Below are positions 25,914 to 35,275 of a DNA stretch of 64,000 bases, piece by piece (the stretch's first letter is position 1; every line of letters starts with the position of its first letter). The stretch lies in contig CAZVCG010000004.1 of assembly GCA_964626265.1 (NCBI GenBank), forward strand, positions 5,713-69,712. The letters are read 5' to 3'. Origin of the DNA: an uncultured Rhodospirillaceae bacterium (GTDB lineage: Bacteria > Pseudomonadota > Alphaproteobacteria > UBA9219). The notes beneath the pieces were generated by a model. The model ran no database searches. It saw only the letters and a program-made list of their open reading frames with translations, and was not told where the DNA came from. The position numbers and the translations under genes are program-made.

Positions 25914-27434
25914 TTAACTCTGCAGCAACCTGCGCAACAATTCCACGTCTTCGCGGAACGTAGCGTCGTAAGCCGACAATTCCTCGATCTTCTTGACGGC
26001 GTGGATCACCGTTGTGTGGTCGCGGCCGCCGAATTTGCGGCCGATTTCCGGCAAGCTGCGCGGCGTAAGCTGCTTGGCCAAATACATGGCAACCTGACGC
26101 GGGCGCGCCACGGCCCGAGCGCGTCGCGCGGAATGCATATCCGTCAGGCGGACGTTGTAGTGTTCGGCGACCTTTTTCTGGATTTCGTCGATCGTGATGC
26201 GGCGTTCTGTCGAGCGCAATAAATCCGCCAGAACTTCATGCGTCATCTCAATGGATATTGTGCGTCCGACGAGTTGGGCGTGCGCCACGATGCGGTTGAG
26301 CGCGCCTTCAAGCTCGCGGATGTTCGACGTGATCTTGTGCGCGAGGAATTCGATGACTTTGTCCGGCACCGGACAGCCAAGTTTCTCTGCTTTTGCCGCT
26401 AGAATGCCGAGACGCAATTCGTAATTCGCAGGATGCAGGTCGGCCACGAGGCCCCAGCCGAGGCGCGAACGCAAGCGTTCTTCCATGCGGTCGAGATCCT
26501 GAGGCGATTTATCCGCCGAGACGATGACCTGACGGTTGCGGTCGACGAGCGAGTTAAAAGTATGGAAGAACTCTTCCTGCGTCGTGTCCTTGCCGCCGAT
26601 GAACTGAACGTCGTCGATCATCAGAACGTCGACCGAGCGGAATTGCTCCTTGAAGGAAACGGTGTCCTTGAAACGCAAAGCGCGCACAAACTGGTACATG
26701 AACTTTTCCGCCGACATATAAATGACGCGGCGGTGCGGATAGGTATTGCGGATGTGCCACGCGATGGCGTGCATCAAGTGCGTCTTGCCCAGCCCTACCC
26801 CGCCATAGAGAAACAGAGGGTTAAAGGACGGCGTTTCCGTGTCCGCGACGCGGCGTGCGGCGGCATAGGCCAGTTCGTTAGGTTTGCCGACGACGAAATT
26901 CTCGAACGTAAAGCGCGGATCAAGCGGCGCTTCCATGGACGGCGAAGAATTAGCGGGATCTGAAGAACCGGCGCTAATAAATGATGGCTTGGGCGCCGAA
27001 ACGACAGGCTGCGGCTCCCTAAATTCGGTAACCGTGGGTTGCTCTACCCGGGCATCCGCAACCACGCTCACGGCGGGTTTTGCGATGGGCGAGACGACCT
27101 TAAGCTCAACCTGTCCGTTCTTGACGAATTGCATCCACATCGTGCGGATCGTGTCGCCGTAATGCGCTTCGACCCAGTCGCGCATGAAGCGTGTCGGAAG
27201 CGACAGCTGCAGCAAGGTCACTCCGCCTTGCTCTGATATTTCTCCGGCAACAGGCTCTAGCCATCGGCGAAAAGCCGTTTCGCCTAATTGCGCTCTCAGA
27301 CGTTCGCGCAGTTGCCGCCAAGCCGCTTCTGACTCCGTTGCCGATGCCGACATTGCTGCGCCCTTTTCATCTCCGTCAAAACCACTTTCCTTAGCTTGAT
27401 GCGCGAGAGCTAAATTTGACACCATAGTCTCCAT
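25914..27434 (-). CDS. dnaA: Chromosomal replication initiator DnaA
   Basis: AAA+ Walker A (LFLYGGVGLGKTHL), box VII, and C-terminal DNA-binding domain (TTVIHAVKKIEEL). Several in-frame start candidates at the N-terminus. Confidence 0.95.
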   Translation of the reverse strand: METMVSNLALAHQAKESGFDGDEKGAAMSASATESEAAWRQLRERLRAQLGETAFRRWLEPVAGEISEQGGVTLLQLSLPTRFMRDWVEAHYGDTIRTMWMQFVKNGQVELKVVSPIAKPAVSVVADARVEQPTVTEFREPQPVVSAPKPSFISAGSSDPANSSPSMEAPLDPRFTFENFVVGKPNELAYAAARRVADTETPSFNPLFLYGGVGLGKTHLMHAIAWHIRNTYPHRRVIYMSAEKFMYQFVRALRFKDTVSFKEQFRSVDVLMIDDVQFIGGKDTTQEEFFHTFNSLVDRNRQVIVSADKSPQDLDRMEERLRSRLGWGLVADLHPANYELRLGILAAKAEKLGCPVPDKVIEFLAHKITSNIRELEGALNRIVAHAQLVGRTISIEMTHEVLADLLRSTERRITIDEIQKKVAEHYNVRLTDMHSARRARAVARPRQVAMYLAKQLTPRSLPEIGRKFGGRDHTTVIHAVKKIEELSAYDATFREDVELLRRLLQS

Positions 27435-27895
27435 ACATGACTTGATCAGGGCTTACTCGGGACACAACTACTGCATAGCGGCGCAAAATGTTACGCCGCA
27501 GTTATCAACCTGACTAACTTGACGACTTTAAAAAAAAAGGCGGGAAACCTTGTGAAGGAATGAGGCTCATCTTGTTTGTTTTCGATGAAAAATCCATGTC
27601 CTCAACACCATCTCACACTGTTTGTTCAAGAGGTGCGCACAATAATACGAATGATTCGGTTTTGACAATGGGCATAAAGCGAGAACAACCAAAAAAGCAA
27701 AAATCGTGCGTGAAACCTATGCAACGATTTTAACTAAAAAATATTTCTCTCTTGACTCTCGCGCATAAAAAAACGCGCACCGATTAAAGATCAATGCGCG
27801 TATAATTTTTTAATCATCTATTGGGATAAAACTATAGGGTTATTCCAGCATAATATGTGCGTTCGATTACACTGACACACAATAGATTGTGGCTC

Positions 27896-28180
27896 TTAGG
27901 CCTTGGCCTTCTTTCCAACTTCCATCGCCTTAACGCGCTTTGCCAAACGCGATGTCTTGCGCGCCGCGGTTTTCCAATGCACGGTGCCGCGATTAGCCGC
28001 GCGGGCCAGATTGGATTCCGCCGCGCGCAAGGCCGTCTTGGCGGCGATTTGATCTTTTGACGCGACGGCTTTTTCTACGGCTTTCGTTAGTGTATGGACT
28101 TTAGCGCGGCGCGAACGGTTAAGAGCGTTGCGTTTGATTGTTTGGCGGGCGCGTTTCGCGGCGGATTTATGCGTAGCCAT
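27896..28180 (-). CDS. rpsT: 30S ribosomal protein S20
   Basis: MATHKSAAKRARQTIKRNALNRSRR... is the typical S20. Divergent from dnaA, as in many alphaproteobacteria. Confidence 0.9.
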   Translation of the reverse strand: MATHKSAAKRARQTIKRNALNRSRRAKVHTLTKAVEKAVASKDQIAAKTALRAAESNLARAANRGTVHWKTAARKTSRLAKRVKAMEVGKKAKA

Positions 28181-28426: not shown

Positions 28427-29224
28427 ATGGCCAAAAAATCTCTACCAACCCAATCCGCCAAAGAGGCGAACGTCCATATGTTAGGCAACGCCGTGCGCGA
28501 CATCGCCGGCGAGGGTTTGCGTCCGGACGATCAGGTGTTGTCCGAAGAAAACGGCAGGATTAAATACCGCGCCGTGAAGCAAAATGATGAGGCGGTAGAT
28601 TCATATAGGCCCACCCCTACAGAAAACAGAGCGTTCGCGCATGAACTTGGCGGGAAAGAAATCGAACTTTTACTTTATAGAGCCATCAAATCCCCGCACT
28701 TAATACAGGGCCCCCGAAGAAGAATGCTTTTGGGTGAACTTCAAGCATGGGCCTTTGAGGGAAAGAAAACGAAGCGTCTAGCTCCACATACGGCAAAGCG
28801 CGGATTTATATTCGATCCAAAAACACACTCGATATCCAGCCTGTCGCTTTACCGGCAAATTAAAAAGACCAATCCGAGGCTGGAACAGTTGCTCGGTTTC
28901 AGGCAGTTAAGGCCTTCGCGCAACTATAATGCCGTTCGCACGACGCAGATCGCCGCCGATGGGTACGATCAGGTCGAAACAGAAGGCGTTCTTAAGGGCG
29001 AGCAAGTTAATAAGGTGGCCGATTACGCCGCCGCCGTTCAGCCGATGGCTCCTTTATTTACGCCCACCAAACGCCGCCTCAGGGACAATAACAGTCTGAA
29101 ATTGGAAAACGCCATCCTGAGCGAACAGGCGCCTGACGCGTCACAAGGCCGTAAGACGGTAGATTTAGAACTCCTCCTTTTGGCCGCACACGCCGCAAGG
29201 TTTCCTGTGCCTTTTGCTGCGTAA
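28427..29224 (+). CDS. Hypothetical protein (ORFan)
   Basis: 265-aa ORF, charged and hydrophilic, with no recognisable motifs. Confidence 0.4.
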   Translation: MAKKSLPTQSAKEANVHMLGNAVRDIAGEGLRPDDQVLSEENGRIKYRAVKQNDEAVDSYRPTPTENRAFAHELGGKEIELLLYRAIKSPHLIQGPRRRMLLGELQAWAFEGKKTKRLAPHTAKRGFIFDPKTHSISSLSLYRQIKKTNPRLEQLLGFRQLRPSRNYNAVRTTQIAADGYDQVETEGVLKGEQVNKVADYAAAVQPMAPLFTPTKRRLRDNNSLKLENAILSEQAPDASQGRKTVDLELLLLAAHAARFPVPFAA

Positions 29225-29495: not shown

Positions 29496-30455
29496 ATGCC
29501 AAACAGCATTAAGCTTATCGCAGGAAACAACAACCGTCCGCTTGCCGAAGCCATGGCCCAATATTTGGGCGTCAATCTCACCCAAGCCAACATCAAATGT
29601 TTTTCCGATAAAGAAATTTTCGTCGAGATCCTCGAAAACGTGCGCGGCGAAGACACGTTCGTCGTTCAACCGACAAGCTGCCCCGCCAATGATAGCCTGA
29701 TGGAGCTTCTTGTTTCCATCGACACGTTGCGCCGCAGTTCGGCCCGCCGCATCACCGCCGTGATGCCCTATTACGGGTACGCGAGGCAGGACCGAAAGAC
29801 CAGTCCGCGTTCGCCCATCACCGCCAAGCTGGTCGCAAACCTGATCACCCGCGCCGGCGCCGACCGTGTGTTGACGCTCGATCTGCATGCCGGACAGATA
29901 CAGGGCTTTTTCGATATTCCTCTCGACAACCTTTATGCCGCGCCCGTTTTTGCGCGTGACATTCGCGACTCCATGCTCTCGAACGGCAAAATGCCGAAGT
30001 GCCTCACTATCGTATCGCCAGATACCGGCGGCGTGGTGCGCGCGCGCGCGCTGGCCAAACGGGTTGACGCCGACCTCGCCATCATCGACAAGCGCCGCGA
30101 AAGAGCCGGTGAATCCGAAGTGATGAACATTATTGGCGAAGTCAAAGACCGCACCTGCATTCTCTTCGACGATATCGTGGACAGCGCGGGAACCTTGTGC
30201 AACGCCGCCGACGCAATTCTGAACAAGGGCGCAAAAACCGTTATTGCCTATTGCACACACGGCGTTTTTTCCGGCAAGGCCGTCGAAAAGATCACGGCTT
30301 CAGGAATCCAGAGCATTACCGTGACCGACAGCATCGCCGCGTCGCCGGAAGTGGCTGCCTGCAAGAAAATCCGCTATCTGAGCGTCGCCCCGCTCCTCGC
30401 CGAAGCCGTAGCGCGCATCAGCCAGGAACGCTCGGTGTCGAGCTTGTTTACGTGA
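29496..30455 (+). CDS. prs: Ribose-phosphate pyrophosphokinase
   Basis: [18 protein letters not shown], the PRPP-binding loop [14 protein letters not shown], and DDIVDSAGT. Start set at ATG 29496. Confidence 0.95.
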
Positions 30456-30676
30456 TTGAAGTAATGTAATAATGAAATACTTGCTTCACTCGTAAGGTTA
30501 TGGCTCTATTTACATTTCACGTACAAAATTTCTTTTGGCTGCAGCACTGCAAAAAATGGGTAGATAATTACCCATAAACACAAGTTAACACCTCATAAAC
30601 CATTGATTTTCCTAATTACTTTCGTGGCCTCCCTGTAAAATGGCTTCGTATTTAAGCAATTTTACGGACGGTCATT

Positions 30677-31357
30677 ATGACGGACAACAAAAAATCGCCT
30701 TCTGATTTTGAAGCACAGTTTGATGATGCAGAAAGAGACCTTATCAAACAACAGAAAATAGTATCGAGATTTGTCATTCAGACAGGTCACGGTGCAAAAG
30801 CAGTTAGAAAACATCTGCAAAAGGTTTGCGATCAAGAAACATGGATAAACGACGCCATGGATGAGCTATTAAAACTCAAGAATACGTCTGAAGAATTTAA
30901 AGCCGAGGCCCCTGCTTTATGCCTAAGGGCCAGAGATTTGAAACAGTATACACGGGATATGAATAATGCCCTTTATCTCGATCTGGCGCGTCATAAGTAT
31001 GATCTTCCTACAAAAGTAAGTTTTCTGACTAGCATGATTTTCGGACCTTGGGTCGCTGTGCAAAAAGGTTTTGGGAATGGCACAATCACTCCCGATTATG
31101 CGGCAGGGGCTGGTGGTCTTCTGGGCCTTGGGGTCATTTTTTTAAGCAAGATTGATGCTGGATTCAGAGCGGCGGGCAAAGCTATTTGCTCAACTCCAAA
31201 ACAAATCAGAGCCGAATTCCGGGCCGCAAGCAAAGCTGTTTATGAAGCGCCGCAGCAAATCTGGGACAGCAACTCGTTCATTTATGTGCGGGAAACGATC
31301 AAGGAAAAGCGCCGCGTTGCGCAAAAAGCACTGAATACGTGGAAACTCAAAGTGTGA
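30677..31357 (+). CDS. Hypothetical protein with central TM segment (ORFan)
   Basis: 226-aa ORF flanked by AT-rich DNA. One hydrophobic segment (AGAGGLLGLGVIFLSKI). No family recognised. Confidence 0.4.
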   Translation: MTDNKKSPSDFEAQFDDAERDLIKQQKIVSRFVIQTGHGAKAVRKHLQKVCDQETWINDAMDELLKLKNTSEEFKAEAPALCLRARDLKQYTRDMNNALYLDLARHKYDLPTKVSFLTSMIFGPWVAVQKGFGNGTITPDYAAGAGGLLGLGVIFLSKIDAGFRAAGKAICSTPKQIRAEFRAASKAVYEAPQQIWDSNSFIYVRETIKEKRRVAQKALNTWKLKV

Positions 31358-31583
31358 GGTTGTCTTTTTCTGGCATTTTTTTGTACTTGCCAATGCCAAG
31401 AGCTTTCGCCCTTGCGTCGCGATTTTTTTCCATTTCCTCAAAAAACTTCTGATCGTCTTTACTAAACCCTCTAGGCAAAAAATTTTTATCCCACCATGCC
31501 GTGGCCAACTTATAGAGCTTTGCCATGCCAGCTCCGACAATTACGAGTCCAGCAGCCGCGAAGCCATATTCGATATTAGTCAT
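31347..31583 (-). CDS. Small membrane protein (ORFan), convergent with the preceding gene
   Basis: 78 aa; N-terminal TM (YGFAAAGLVIVGAGMAKLY) and charged C-terminus. Confidence 0.3.
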   Translation of the reverse strand: MTNIEYGFAAAGLVIVGAGMAKLYKLATAWWDKNFLPRGFSKDDQKFFEEMEKNRDARAKALGIGKYKKMPEKDNLTL

Positions 31584-31842
31584 TGGAATACCTTCTCATT
31601 TACGCCTCCCTTATTCTGCCTTTTTTGCCTGTGTCCCTCAAGCATGTTAGGCAATGGTTAATACTTTCGGGTTGAACGGAAAGGCATAATTAGCCACATA
31701 ATTAATATGATGAAACTTAAGGCAAAATAGCCGTAGTGTCTTAACACGAAGAAAAATATTTGTTATCCCTGCCATCGCGTAGTAAGTAATCCCCACCCCG
31801 GCACCCCTGGAGGCCGGATTTACCACCTAATGGAGAAACAAA

Positions 31843-32589
31843 ATGACGCAAGTTGAAACGCTTGCGGCGGAAATTCGCGAACGCGCTGGCAAGGGAGCCT
31901 CGCACGCCATCCGCCGTACTGAGAAACTGCCTGCCGTAATCTATGGCGACAAGCAACCGCCCCTTTTAATTACCATGGAAATGAAACTGGCCATTCGCTA
32001 CGTGAACAAAGCCAATTTCTTTACCAATCTTTTCGACATCGACGTCGGCGGCAAAAAGCACCGCGTGTTGCCCCGCGACGTTCAATTCGATCCGGTATCG
32101 GACCGTCCGCTTCACATCGATTTTATGCGCGTTTCTCCCAAGACGAAAGTGCGCGTCTATGTGCCCGTGTCGTTCATCAATGCCGATAAATCGCCCGGCA
32201 TCAAGCGCGGCGGCACGCTTAACGTCGTGCATCACGAAATCGAAGTCACGTGCGCGCCCGACAAGATCCCCGGCAAGTTCGAAGTCAGCCTCGAAGGCCT
32301 GGCCATCGGCGACGCCGTGCATCTATCCGCGATCACGTTCCCCGAAGGCGTTCACCCGACATCGAAGGACAAAGCGTACACCATCGCCTCGATCGCGGTG
32401 CCCTCGGCCATTCGTTCGGAAGCCAAGGAAGCTGCTGCCGCTTCTGCTGCCGCCGCTGCCGCACCTGTTGCGGATGCTGCGGCTCCTGCTGCCGGCGCTG
32501 CGCCTGCTGCCGGCGCTGCGACTCCTGCTGCCGGCGCAAAGGCTGCGGCCCCTGCTGCTGGCGCGAAGCCAGCTGCGGGCAAGAAGTAA
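31843..32589 (+). CDS. rplY: 50S ribosomal protein L25 / general stress protein Ctc, with Ala/Pro-rich tail
   Basis: L25 N-domain (AEIRERAGKGASHAIRRTEKLPAVIYG) and beta-barrel C-domain, then AAAPAAGA repeats. Confidence 0.9.
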   Translation: MTQVETLAAEIRERAGKGASHAIRRTEKLPAVIYGDKQPPLLITMEMKLAIRYVNKANFFTNLFDIDVGGKKHRVLPRDVQFDPVSDRPLHIDFMRVSPKTKVRVYVPVSFINADKSPGIKRGGTLNVVHHEIEVTCAPDKIPGKFEVSLEGLAIGDAVHLSAITFPEGVHPTSKDKAYTIASIAVPSAIRSEAKEAAAASAAAAAAPVADAAAPAAGAAPAAGAATPAAGAKAAAPAAGAKPAAGKK

Positions 32590-32605: not shown

Positions 32606-33187
32606 GTGGCTCAACCCGAACGCCTTATCGTCGGACTTGGCAATCCCGGGCCGGAATACGCCCAGACACGCCACAACATCGGCTTTATGGCGCTGGATGC
32701 GCTTGCGTCCAGCGTCCGCGCCGCGCCGTGGCAGCGTAAATACAAGGCCCAGATTGCCGCCGCCGAGATCGACGGCCATGACGTTTTGTTGATCAAGCCG
32801 ATGACGTTCATGAACCTCTCAGGCGAGAGCGTTGGCGAGGCCATGCGCTTTTACAAACTTGAAGCCAAAGACGTGATCGTCTTTCACGACGACATCGATC
32901 TCGCCTCCGGCAAAGTGAAAGTGAAGCAAGGCGGCGGTAACGCCGGCCATAACGGACTGAAATCTCTGGATGCGCACATCGGCAACGATTACTGGCGCGT
33001 GAGGCTCGGCATCGGGCGGCCCGAGAACAAGGATATGGTGCACGATTATGTGCTGAACGGCTTTGCCAAGGCGGACAAGGCCTGGCTGGAGCCTTTGATG
33101 GCCGCCATTACGGGCAACGTTGCAAAGCTGTTAGGCAACAAACCCGACGAGTTCATGAGCCGGATTGCCGATATAATTAAATCATAG
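32606..33187 (+). CDS. pth: Peptidyl-tRNA hydrolase
   Basis: LIVGLGNPGPEYAQTRHNIGF and GHNGLKS motifs. Confidence 0.95.
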   Translation: MAQPERLIVGLGNPGPEYAQTRHNIGFMALDALASSVRAAPWQRKYKAQIAAAEIDGHDVLLIKPMTFMNLSGESVGEAMRFYKLEAKDVIVFHDDIDLASGKVKVKQGGGNAGHNGLKSLDAHIGNDYWRVRLGIGRPENKDMVHDYVLNGFAKADKAWLEPLMAAITGNVAKLLGNKPDEFMSRIADIIKS

Positions 33188-33196
33188 GAATTAACA

Positions 33197-34303
33197 ATGG
33201 GTTTTAATTGCGGGATTGTGGGACTGCCGAACGTCGGCAAATCGACGTTGTTCAACGCGTTGACGGCGACAGCGGCGGCGCAAGCAGCGAATTATCCGTT
33301 TTGCACGATCGAGCCGAACGTAGGCCGCGTCAGTGTGCCGGACGAACGTTTGGACAAACTCGCGGCAATTGCCAATTCGGCCAAGATCATCCCGACGCAG
33401 CTTGAGTTCGTGGACATCGCTGGGTTGGTGCGCGGAGCTTCCAAGGGCGAAGGGCTGGGCAACCAGTTCCTTGCCAACATCCGCGAAGTGGACGCGATTA
33501 TCCATCTGCTCCGCTGTTTCGAGAATTCCGACATCACGCATGTGGAAGGCAACATCGATCCCATCCGCGATGCCGAGGTCGTCGAGACAGAATTGATGAT
33601 CGCCGACATGGAGAGCCTCGAGAAACGCCTGTCGAACGCGCAGAAGAAAGCCAAAGGCGGCGATCAGGAGTCCAGGGAACAGATTACGGTGATGGAACCC
33701 GCCCTCGCCGCTTTGCAGGCAGGCAAGCCCGCGCGTACTATCTTGCCTTCTCTGTCAGCCGAACAAAAAAAGATTTTCAAGCAGTTACAATTGATCACCT
33801 CGAAGCCTGTATTATATGTGGCGAACGTTTCCGAGGCCGAGGCTGCGACCGGCAATTCATACTCCGAAGCTGTCGCCGCCAAGGCCAAGGCCGAAGGCAC
33901 GCAGAGCGTCGTCATCGCCGCCGCGATCGAATCCGAAGTCGCCGTCTTGCCGAGCGAAGAGGACAAGAAAGAGTTTCTGGAGTCGTTGGGATTGAGCGAA
34001 CCTGGCCTCAACCGCGTCATCCGCGCGGGATACAAGCTACTTGATTTGGTGACGTTCTTCACCGTCGGCCCCAAGGAAGCGCGAGCATGGACGGTGCGGC
34101 GCGGCGCGTCGGCTCCGGAAGCGGCGGGCGTTATCCATACGGATTTCGAGCGCGGATTCATCAAGGCCGAAACCATAGATTACGCAAGCTATGTCGCCTA
34201 CAAGGGCGAAGCGGGCGCGCGCGAGGCTGGAAAGCTGCGTCAGGAGGGCAAAGATTACATTGTGCAGGACGGCGATATATTCCACTTCAGATTTAATGTG
34301 TGA
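33197..34303 (+). CDS. ychF: Ribosome-binding ATPase YchF
   Basis: GIVGLPNVGKSTLFNALT G1 motif, TGS C-terminal domain; 368 aa. Confidence 0.95.
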   Translation: MGFNCGIVGLPNVGKSTLFNALTATAAAQAANYPFCTIEPNVGRVSVPDERLDKLAAIANSAKIIPTQLEFVDIAGLVRGASKGEGLGNQFLANIREVDAIIHLLRCFENSDITHVEGNIDPIRDAEVVETELMIADMESLEKRLSNAQKKAKGGDQESREQITVMEPALAALQAGKPARTILPSLSAEQKKIFKQLQLITSKPVLYVANVSEAEAATGNSYSEAVAAKAKAEGTQSVVIAAAIESEVAVLPSEEDKKEFLESLGLSEPGLNRVIRAGYKLLDLVTFFTVGPKEARAWTVRRGASAPEAAGVIHTDFERGFIKAETIDYASYVAYKGEAGAREAGKLRQEGKDYIVQDGDIFHFRFNV

Positions 34304-34310
34304 CCGCCAG

Positions 34311-35150
34311 CTAAAGAGAGTGTTCTTGGCCTTTTCTCAATTTATGAATTGTAGCGTTATTAATGTCGTTGCGGTTCAACGTCTGTTCGCGCACAGCGTC
34401 TTCGAAATCCGACCAGTGATTGAGTAGCGTATGTTCCTCAAGCTTGAATTTCTCGAATATTCCCCTTAAGACCATGCCCATATCGTACGTTTTAAAGTAA
34501 TCCCCAAGCGTATAATTTTCTGGCAAAGGCTCCAACGCCAATCTGTTTTCGGGTTTGTCTTTTATTCTGTGGCCGATCCGGCTTTCAAAAAAAAGGCCTT
34601 CCACGCATTTTTCTAACGGTATGATCACCTTATAAGTGCGACTCTCAACATCGGCCCATTTCAATTCATGTTCGGGAGAGTACCCTTGCCCTTCGTTTTT
34701 CAGCCAGCGAAAGGCCTCCTCCTCCTTGTCCGTGAAGTGCCCTACATAAGCTTTGATTTCCAATCCGCTTTCCGAAAAGCCCTCTTCGAGAAAGGTCACA
34801 AGCCTGAAACGGCGGCCTTTCTCCTGATCTGAATATTCCTGATTCAAGGCGTTTATGACGGGCGAAAAAGCGACTTCAACCTCATCCATAAGGGACAGGA
34901 CGCTTGTCTGCGTAAATTCGGATTCGTCCTGTTCTTTCTTTTCTTTTCCGCGGAAAGACAAAGCGGTTGCGGCGCGCTTGAACAGATTGGAAACGGCTTT
35001 CTTAACCCCCGCGAAAAGCGGCAATGGATCTATGGTATCATGATTTTTATCTTCTTCCTTGACGCGTTCCGGTTCGTCCGGGCCGACGGCTTGAGCCGCC
35101 AGCCTAATATTTTCCTGAAGAATCTCTCTGGCGACTTTCATTATCATCAT
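34311..35150 (-). CDS. Hypothetical protein (ORFan)
   Basis: Long ORF with no recognisable motifs. Start uncertain; the track ORF extends to 35198. Confidence 0.4.
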   Translation of the reverse strand: MMIMKVAREILQENIRLAAQAVGPDEPERVKEEDKNHDTIDPLPLFAGVKKAVSNLFKRAATALSFRGKEKKEQDESEFTQTSVLSLMDEVEVAFSPVINALNQEYSDQEKGRRFRLVTFLEEGFSESGLEIKAYVGHFTDKEEEAFRWLKNEGQGYSPEHELKWADVESRTYKVIIPLEKCVEGLFFESRIGHRIKDKPENRLALEPLPENYTLGDYFKTYDMGMVLRGIFEKFKLEEHTLLNHWSDFEDAVREQTLNRNDINNATIHKLRKGQEHSL

Positions 35151-35275
35151 CGCGATCAGCCTTTCACCAAGCCAGCTATAAAGAATACAATTGTTCAAAA
35201 CCCTAAAATAAGTTATCCAAAAAGCGGCTTCACGTACAGCCTTTACCCGTTAACCTTGTTTAGTGTTGGTTTGCA

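Follow-up and report, generated by a model that had tools for sequence, protein, structure and literature searches.

A portable pair of predicted membrane-protein genes with CtrA-type promoter boxes, inserted between prs and rplY of an uncultured alphaproteobacterium

Introduction

The DNA analysed here, referred to as the window, comprises 64,000 nt of an uncultured Rhodospirillaceae bacterium (contig CAZVCG010000004.1, positions 5,713 to 69,712, assembly GCA_964626265.1). Between the housekeeping genes prs and rplY it carries two genes that meet tail-to-tail, ORF226 on the plus strand and ORF78 on the minus strand, named after the lengths of their products. The two very probably form a conserved two-gene unit, and their insertion and mobile origin are close to certain. 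The favoured reading is that of a self-contained, horizontally acquired cassette, conserved over about 1.2 kb and located inside a 1.32-kb insertion in the short prs-rplY spacer; taken as a whole, with regulation and function included, this explanation is as easily wrong as right. The insertion itself is an ordinary event. The noteworthy part is the portability of the pair, its regulatory DNA, which is better conserved than its proteins, and the CtrA boxes in its promoters.

A recurrent mobile gene pair

Ten independent contexts of the large gene were read, namely the window, L081/L082, L083, L084/L085, L086/L087, L088, L089, L090, and the contigs of P0004 and P0005. A convergent ORF of 70-78 aa follows the large gene tail-to-tail in eight of them, and in the ninth, the P0005 contig, the convergent ORF has 124 aa. 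In the seven paired loci with DNA, the tail-to-tail spacing ranges from -11 to +26 nt. The original prediction had described a two-gene module, and since the pairing recurs in eight to nine of the ten contexts, the module can be considered genuine. The large gene stands alone in L086/L087, which indicates that the pair is not obligate. This solitary gene (L086 5164-5880, also found in L087) is the most divergent family member and lies between an aldehyde dehydrogenase and an acyltransferase gene.

Several of the contexts are mobile, with the pair carried as accessory cargo by integrative mobilisable elements and plasmid-like contigs. L081/L082 encodes, besides a MobA/MobL relaxase, a small tyrosine recombinase; in L083, NikA accompanies a relaxase and a P4-type integrase; and L084/L085 is an integrase island with a HTH_17 gene. 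In L089, the cassette adjoins Hachiman and a primase/PriCT_2 gene within an island, and in L090 it adjoins IetAS; L088 is a further paired locus. The cassette also persists as a solo insert between housekeeping genes, both in the window and on the P0004 contig, where the pair lies between an SbmA-like ABC gene and ybeY and its genes overlap by 12 nt. The GC content of the cassette is 0.39-0.45 and below that of the surroundings in all eight loci analysed.

Analysis of the neighbours with PADLOC confirmed HamA/HamB and IetA/IetS. Both systems are complete and close to cassette homologues, IetA/IetS (L090 3388-6864) at a distance of at most 1.3 kb and Hachiman HamA/HamB (L089 9044-13337) of at most 0.2 kb. 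A small gene beside the cassette in L081 was considered as a Lar-type anti-restriction gene and was rejected, as it has no Pfam support.

So far, the cassette was found in alphaproteobacterial or unassigned contigs. Searches of phage and plasmid collections with tblastn gave no match to the family, viral contigs contained no relative, and the promoter motif had no viral hit. Each gene is present in a single copy in the window, where a second copy was looked for and not found. An alignment of 61 sequences proved too diverse for use in locus pattern scans; one of three sequences led to one extra metagenome locus.

The insertion between prs and rplY

All coordinates of the original prediction hold, and the flanking genes prs, rplY/ctc, pth, and ychF were identified by Pfam (Table 1). 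The interval between prs and rplY (30456-31842) measures 1387 nt and contains ORF226 and the convergent ORF78. It is AT-rich, as had been noticed before, with a GC content of 0.426, whereas the window as a whole has 0.524 and the flanking genes have 0.57-0.60. The GC content at third codon positions (GC3) is 0.414 for ORF226, the lowest among the credible genes of the window, and 0.456 for ORF78, compared to a mean of 0.608 (standard deviation 0.08) for 51 window ORFs.

Relatives for a comparison of gene order were found by a search with prs. The first carries a prs 93% identical to that of the window (L091/L092) and the second one of 80% identity. Neither contains the insert, and prs and rplY are separated by 66 nt in L091/L092 and by 139 nt in the second relative. 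The gene order in L091/L092 is dnaA, rpsT, a 261-aa gene, prs, rplY, pth, a HAD hydrolase gene, ychF, a 278-aa gene, and yebC. In a blastn comparison of the window with L091, similarity ends at 30455 and restarts at 31798, with 22 nt between the corresponding points in L091. From this break, the extra DNA in the window amounts to about 1.32 kb. The empty site in the closest relatives, the atypical composition, and the homologues on mobile elements bear out the earlier proposal that a horizontally acquired insertion splits prs and rplY. The accompanying statement that prs and ctc are contiguous in most bacteria requires qualification. The junction is usually tight, but among 47 more distant alphaproteobacterial loci with prs and rplY still linked, the gap is below 400 nt in only 28 and reaches 0.7-6.9 kb in the other 19. 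This junction has been invaded repeatedly.

Local alignment of the two junction regions revealed an imperfect direct repeat, whose score is reached by 21 of 2000 shuffles; the empty site of L091 reads AGTATTAAAT at the corresponding place. This repeat may be a target duplication or microhomology and is suggestive only. No tRNA gene lies near the insertion, and the insert holds only its two genes, neither of them an integrase or relaxase ORF. With no such gene and only a weak 10-11-nt repeat, the window insertion does not qualify as an integrative mobilisable element or genomic island, although homologues elsewhere lie within such elements. Nor does it qualify as an insertion sequence or miniature inverted-repeat transposable element, as no terminal inverted repeats were found at its ends and the candidate duplication is suggestive only.

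The right end of the insert, outside the conserved unit, consists of AT-rich DNA (31673-31780) with no similarity to any locus compared or to the remainder of the window. In L091, prs and rplY are probably co-transcribed, and in the window they are separated by the insertion. Transcription of rplY-pth-ychF in the window would now have to rely on read-through across the antisense ORF78, or on a promoter in the AT-rich right end (31673-31842).

ORF226 and its family

ORF226 had been called an ORFan, which does not hold. A word-indexed search retrieved two homologues only, with 65% and 36% identity, whereas exhaustive profile search revealed at least 103 homologous clusters at E<=1e-3, 87 of them at E<=1e-10. 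Nearly all members of this unnamed family have 210-260 aa, and all named entries are annotated as "hypothetical". ORF226 aligns over its full length and matches the family profile with E=3e-73. The nearest homologue shows 65% amino acid identity, with about 78% mean column identity over the aligned stretch, and is encoded on a contig that carries a relaxase and a recombinase.

The further claim that recognisable family motifs are absent is upheld by the databases, as ORF226 has no match in Pfam, NCBIfam, PADLOC, PHROGs, or the PDB. Searches of both proteins and 61 family members against Pfam, NCBIfam, PADLOC, and PHROGs gave scattered sub-threshold coiled-coil noise only. Specifically, the window proteins have no match in PADLOC-DB 2.0, and its 5027 models produced only scattered single weak hits with the 61 members. 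A sequence profile search of the PDB with ORF226 yielded nothing below E=0.3, and an exact look-up of the window's own proteins gave no record.

Instead of the single central transmembrane helix (TM) proposed earlier, family-mean hydropathy points to two hydrophobic helices forming a hairpin. The peaks lie at residues ~115-127 and 145-155, with a Gly-rich loop between them, and KD19 is at least 1.6 in 35 of 61 family members, with a maximum of 1.51 in the window copy. AlphaFold2 modelling of ORF226 with three aligned sequences reached a pLDDT of 39, while 61 sequences gave a confident N-terminal part, in which residues 8-107 form a three-helix bundle (pLDDT 94-98). The predicted helices 111-129 and 139-172 hold the hydrophobic segments at a pLDDT of ~50-75 and are followed by C-terminal helices. 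The residues H38, L81, L99, D102, and G146 are near-invariant in the family. The charge distribution suggests an N-in, C-in topology of the hairpin.

The hairpin is followed by a 17-aa amphipathic motif, F-x2-[AG]-K-x2-C-x2-P-x2-I, of which family members contain one or two copies, seen as an indel in the alignment. This copy-number-variable motif with its conserved Cys-x2-Pro occurs in tandem in the window protein and some relatives, and singly in others. Fold searches gave no significant match. The top Foldseek matches were recurrently of the CorA/ZntB/Mrs2 type, with E>0.1 (E>=0.2 in one of the searches) and a TM-score of ~0.3.

ORF78, the convergent partner

The ends of ORF226 and ORF78 overlap by 11 nt. 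The convergent 78-aa ORF of the original prediction is present as described, and hydropathy places its predicted N-terminal TM at residues ~7-25. ORF78 matches the profile of the partner proteins over its full length (E=7e-26). The small partners share 21-34% identity and a common build, in which a short N-terminal flank, neutral or acidic, precedes a single hydrophobic helix and a basic tail whose net charge ranges from +2 to +7. Convergent ORFs of this build and of 70-78 aa follow the large gene in L081, L083, L084, L088, L089, L090, and the P0004 contig. ORF78 is predicted to be oriented N-out, C-in, with the basic tail in the cytoplasm. A conserved Shine-Dalgarno sequence, GGAAGG, precedes the small gene.

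Conserved regulatory DNA

When aligned to each other, the window and L081 agree better in the non-coding stretch upstream of ORF78 than within the ORF78 coding sequence. Conservation was measured on alignments of seven or eight loci. The 180 nt upstream of the large gene show a pairwise identity of 56% with 30% near-invariant columns, and the 100 nt upstream of the small gene 54% with 23%. The respective values are 49% and 22% for the large coding sequence, and 38% and 7% for the small one. Just past either edge of the unit they fall to 38% and 2%. The conserved unit is sharply bounded and extends from ~30497 to 31683 in the window (about 1.2 kb), with background values beyond about -180 of the large gene and -100 of the small gene.

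The conserved blocks upstream of the large gene are, in order, ATGGTTAA..ATCTTCACTATAAAAAC, CAAGTTAAC-N6-GTAAACCATTGATTT-N5-AATTAGTTTCG, GTAAAATG..TTCA.ATTTT, and GGAYGG-N5-ATG. Those of the small gene are TGAAAGYATTAACCAT, TTGAG, AAAAAGTGCATTA, and the Shine-Dalgarno sequence named above. RNAalifold detected no consensus RNA structure in either conserved leader, and the conservation is therefore read as that of protein-binding or promoter DNA. In Rfam, only a spurious isrG hit in the tail of rplY was obtained. A terminator scan detected none between ORF226 and ORF78, and a weak one on the minus strand inside the 3' end of ORF226. A TACC...GGTA hairpin comparable to the one upstream of ORF226 (Table 1) is present in L084 and L089, though not in every locus.

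CtrA-type boxes

The CtrA consensus in Alphaproteobacteria is described as TTAACCAT and TTAA-N7-TTAAC (PMC4426382, PMC6180460). Such sequences occur upstream of both genes of the cassette and are conserved across loci. The box upstream of ORF226 differs from TTAA-N7-TTAAC by one mismatch. The TTAACCAT site of the small gene is present in all seven loci, exact in the window, L081, L083, and L090, and with one mismatch in L084, L088, and L089; the site in L081 is a perfect TTAA-N7-TTAAC.

The motif is also enriched in the window at large. TTAACCAT occurs nine times compared to 1.6 expected (5.7-fold), a number reached in none of 100 shuffles, and it ranks joint first among 560 8-mers of the same composition. 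Near-matches to the full box number 27, compared to 10.9 expected. The nine TTAACCAT sites are located at 953, 11732, 16030, 18091, 18648, 21677, 24959, 28336, and 31654. Eight of them lie in 5' regions, namely those of an EAL-domain gene, a DsbA-like gene, aat, a MlaD gene, two unnamed genes, rpsT, and ORF78.

This distribution suggests a readable CtrA regulon in the host genome. Judged by these counts, the host clearly appears to use the motif, and the cassette carries what look like host-type copies before both of its genes. CtrA control of the cassette promoters is, on balance, slightly favoured. Alphaproteobacterial phages are known to co-opt CtrA, with clusters of CtrA-binding sites and "lytic deferment" (Mascolo et al. 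2022, PMC9437464). No report of CtrA co-option by a small non-phage cassette was found in the literature searched.

Comparison with known systems

The cassette belongs to no named family; its clear points of agreement with known classes are a colicin-like layout and the CtrA motifs. Colicin immunity genes lie downstream of the colicin gene, on the opposite strand, and have their own promoter. Pore-forming colicin/immunity pairs (A, E1, Ia) share with the cassette a larger helical protein with a hydrophobic hairpin, a gene for a small inner-membrane protein on the opposite strand, and carriage on plasmids or mobile elements. In contrast, there is no sequence or significant fold relationship, and none of the 61 members has a Colicin Pfam hit. 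ORF226, with only 226 aa, lacks receptor and translocation domains, SOS control, and a lysis gene, and its homologues can exist alone. Furthermore, colicin immunity proteins have three or four TMs, whereas ORF78 is predicted to have one.

Like the cassette, convergent type I toxin-antitoxin (TA) loci with overlapping 3' ends (fst/RNAII of par, bsrG/SR4, txpA/RatA) encode a small single-TM protein of low conservation whose tail is charged. A further resemblance is that in the cassette the convergent partner transcript must overlap the 3' end, given the gap of -11 to +26 nt. Type I loci differ in that the partner of ORF78 is a well-conserved gene for a 226-aa protein and not a small RNA, in line with the absence of an Rfam hit. 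Type I toxins usually have fewer than 60 aa and one TM, while ORF78 and its relatives have 70-78 aa, one predicted TM, and a basic tail. Type II TA systems are less similar, as the genes are convergent in all paired loci instead of co-directional and co-transcribed, and no DNA-binding antitoxin domain or known toxin fold was detected in either protein with Pfam, NCBIfam, or PADLOC.

Like the CtrA-reading phages of Alphaproteobacteria (PMC9437464), the cassette is a mobile entity with apparently host-type CtrA boxes in its promoters. Here, however, a two-gene cassette found on chromosomes and on integrative or mobilisable elements takes the place of the phage, and its boxes are predicted from sequence. 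Cargo of defence islands is a further parallel, since the cassette occupies accessory cargo regions of integrase- or relaxase-bearing islands and lies directly beside HamAB and IetAS at two loci, but it matches no PADLOC defence system. The modelled architecture of ORF226, in which a helical domain in the cytoplasm precedes a membrane hairpin of two helices, is reminiscent of CorA/ZntB/Mrs2-type channels. This resemblance is generic, as there is no CorA Pfam hit, the loop reads KGFGNG rather than GMN, and the Foldseek scores given above are weak.

Proposed function and alternatives

The cassette holds a convergent gene pair, and either gene has a conserved promoter to itself. In the proposed mechanism, ORF226 would be built from a cytoplasmic three-helix bundle, a hydrophobic hairpin, and amphipathic C-terminal helices. 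Because CtrA-type boxes are present in both promoters, the host cell-cycle regulator CtrA probably times expression from both. As the genes meet tail-to-tail without room for a terminator, their transcripts must run into each other; they would collide or overlap and may damp one another. In the most speculative step, the two proteins would assemble into a complex in the inner membrane and give the element that carries them a conflict function, which could be defence or abortive infection, addiction, or the exclusion of incoming DNA. ORF78 would be the membrane-active part and ORF226 its regulator or sensor. This assignment is preferred to a "large toxin, small antidote" scheme on account of L086/L087, where the large gene has no partner yet keeps its upstream blocks.

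The tentative suggestion, more easily doubted than accepted, is a conflict module that acts at the membrane, is timed by CtrA, and provides defence, exclusion, or addiction. In its full form it is doubtful, and would describe a previously undescribed two-protein inner-membrane cassette for defence, exclusion, or addiction, with both convergent promoters wired to CtrA, acting at one stage of the cell cycle and with mutual control by head-on transcripts. The defence neighbours and the solo persistence between housekeeping genes back a conflict role weakly. The original prediction had named addiction, immunity, or abortive infection as possible roles, which would fit the surroundings of mobile elements and defence islands.

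Several observations weigh against these proposals. Defence genes adjoin the cassette in only two of the seven loci with DNA. In L086/L087 the small gene is missing while the upstream blocks, including TTAA-N7-TAAAC, are intact. Neither a toxin, immunity, holin, or exclusion protein nor a defence protein was retrieved by homology or as a significant fold match. The hydropathy of the window copies is borderline for true transmembrane helices (KD19 maxima 1.51 and 1.46), so membrane insertion is a prediction. The CtrA reading relies on the consensus, and AT-rich promoter DNA could resemble such boxes; moreover, the box of the large gene always has one mismatch (TAAAC for TTAAC). Regarding mobility, the candidate duplication of 10-11 nt is of weak significance, and the window copy comes without inverted terminal repeats, an integrase, or a transposase.

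It is extremely improbable that the relatives lost an ancestral segment by deletion, or that the ORFs are chance frames in an AT-rich non-coding spacer. This idea draws on the fact that only two relatives were inspected. Both of these lack the segment, however, its composition is foreign, its closest homologue lies on a relaxase-bearing contig, and both proteins match their profiles over the full length; the size of the family, the short spacers, and the blastn break effectively refute it. A classical toxin-immunity pair, with ORF226 as a pore-forming toxin and ORF78 as the immunity factor, would account for the convergent layout of a large gene and a small membrane-protein gene with separate promoters, in analogy to pore-forming colicins. 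The lack of a Colicin or other toxin Pfam hit among the 61 members, of an export signal, a receptor-binding or translocation domain, a lysis gene, and an SOS box, together with the solitary, promoter-bearing large gene of L086/L087, makes it quite unlikely.

That same solitary gene fits a non-toxic function, as assumed for superinfection or entry exclusion, in which two inner-membrane proteins would block incoming phage, gene-transfer-agent, or conjugative DNA without harming the cell. CtrA would then switch the module on when pili and flagella, the receptors of phages, are made, which agrees with the link of CtrA to the biology of pili- and flagella-tropic phages (PMC9437464). The carriage of the family as cargo of mobile elements and the small, predicted inner-membrane proteins without enzymatic domains are compatible with this function. 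Neither protein resembles a known exclusion protein, though, the family was not found in phage or prophage, and the mobilisable elements that carry it encode no mating pore of their own that would need protection, which renders exclusion unlikely. A similarly low probability is assigned to a neutral accessory pair that hitch-hikes on mobile elements, acting for instance in the envelope, in stress, or as an effector in host interaction. No toxin or defence signature was detectable, several copies lie between ordinary metabolic genes, and many envelope genes belong to CtrA regulons, all of which would suit such a pair. Repeated gain of about 1.2 kb as one compact block that includes the regulatory DNA, in cargo regions beside defence systems, is more typical of selfish or defensive cargo.

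Feature coordinates and neighbouring genes

Table 1. Features of the prs-ychF region in the window, with positions counted from the first nucleotide of the window.
Feature	Position	Strand	Basis
prs	29496-30455		Pfam
Inserted segment, DNA absent from L091; about 1.32 kb after allowing for a 22-nt native spacer	30456..31797	.	blastn against L091
Left copy of candidate target-site duplication or microhomology, AGTAATGTAAT	30460..30470	+	local alignment of the two junction regions
Far-upstream conserved block, left edge of the unit; ATGGTTAA..ATCTTCACTATAAAAAC elsewhere, degenerate in the window	30500..30535	+	seven-locus alignment
7-bp hairpin (ATGGGTAATTATCTACCCAT) followed by a minus-strand T-run; possible terminator of leftward antisense transcription	30556..30575	-	terminator scan
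CtrA-type full box TTAACACCTCATAAACCAT (TTAA-N7-TAAAC + CAT), ~75-92 nt upstream of ORF226	30585..30603	+	aligned in seven of eight loci
Promoter/5' leader of ORF226: TTGATTT, AATTACTTTCG, GTAAAATG..TTC..ATTT; Shine-Dalgarno GGACGG at 30666-30671	30604..30676	+	
ORF226, member of an unnamed family of 210-260-aa proteins	30677-31357	+	full-length family alignment
N-terminal three-helix bundle, residues 8-107, predicted cytoplasmic; near-invariant H38, L81, L99, D102	30698..30997	+	
Hydrophobic helical hairpin, residues ~111-160; conserved K-G-x-G loop and AA-x-AG motif	31007..31156	+	family hydropathy
Duplicated 17-aa amphipathic motif, residues 163-196, FRAAGKAICSTPKQIRA / FRAASKAVYEAPQQIWD	31163..31264	+	family alignments
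ORF78, predicted small single-pass membrane protein: short N-flank, TM ~7-25, basic C-terminal tail	31347-31583	-	
Promoter/leader of ORF78: TGAAAGTATTAACCAT, TTGAG, AAAAAAGGCAGAATA; right edge of the unit	31584..31672	-	multi-locus alignments
Exact CtrA 8-mer TTAACCAT, 71 nt upstream of ORF78	31654..31661	-	
AT-rich unique DNA within the insert, outside the conserved unit; possibly donor flank or rplY promoter	31673..31780	.	promoter role presumed
Right copy of candidate duplication, AGTAAGTAAT	31781..31790	+	local alignment of the two junction regions
rplY/ctc (L25/TL5)	31843-32589		Pfam
pth	32606-33187		Pfam
ychF	33197-34303		Pfam

Two low-GC genes without family hits flank the cluster, one of 265 aa (28427-29224, plus strand) and one of 295 aa (34311-35198, minus strand). 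Their orthologues in L091 share 29% and 38% identity, compared to 75-93% for neighbouring genes. Both were considered as parts of the insertion, which is ruled out by these positional orthologues; by this comparison, they are apparently fast-evolving, lineage-specific genes and not recent insertions.

Both relatives have a gene for a HAD-family hydrolase between pth and ychF, encoded on the opposite strand (L091 8386-9057). The window has a gap of 9 nt at this place (33187-33197), so this gene was lost here or gained in the relatives. The dnaA gene (25914-27434) is located ~3 kb from the insertion and is followed by an AT-rich stretch of 600 nt (27350-27950, GC 0.39) before rpsT, which could be promoter or origin-related DNA. 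The 3' end of rplY (32433-32564) encodes an Ala/Pro-rich tail of overlapping 9-21-nt repeats, to which the isrG model aligns with 21.8 bits compared to a gathering score of 100 bits.

Significance

At the least, what looked like an orphan insert in a ribosome-associated cluster turns out to be a gene pair that is portable and recurs, and its regulatory DNA is more strongly constrained than its proteins. Foreign DNA can enter the prs-rplY spacer without disruption of an essential cluster. If the favoured reading is true, the cassette would be a compact mobile unit, about 1.2 kb long, that brings along cell-cycle-timed regulation of its own, and accessory cargo would plug directly into CtrA, as so far documented for phages. 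An unnamed family of more than 100 clusters and its cognate small partner would then join the catalogue of conflict systems, in which membrane-acting systems without enzymatic domains are under-represented.

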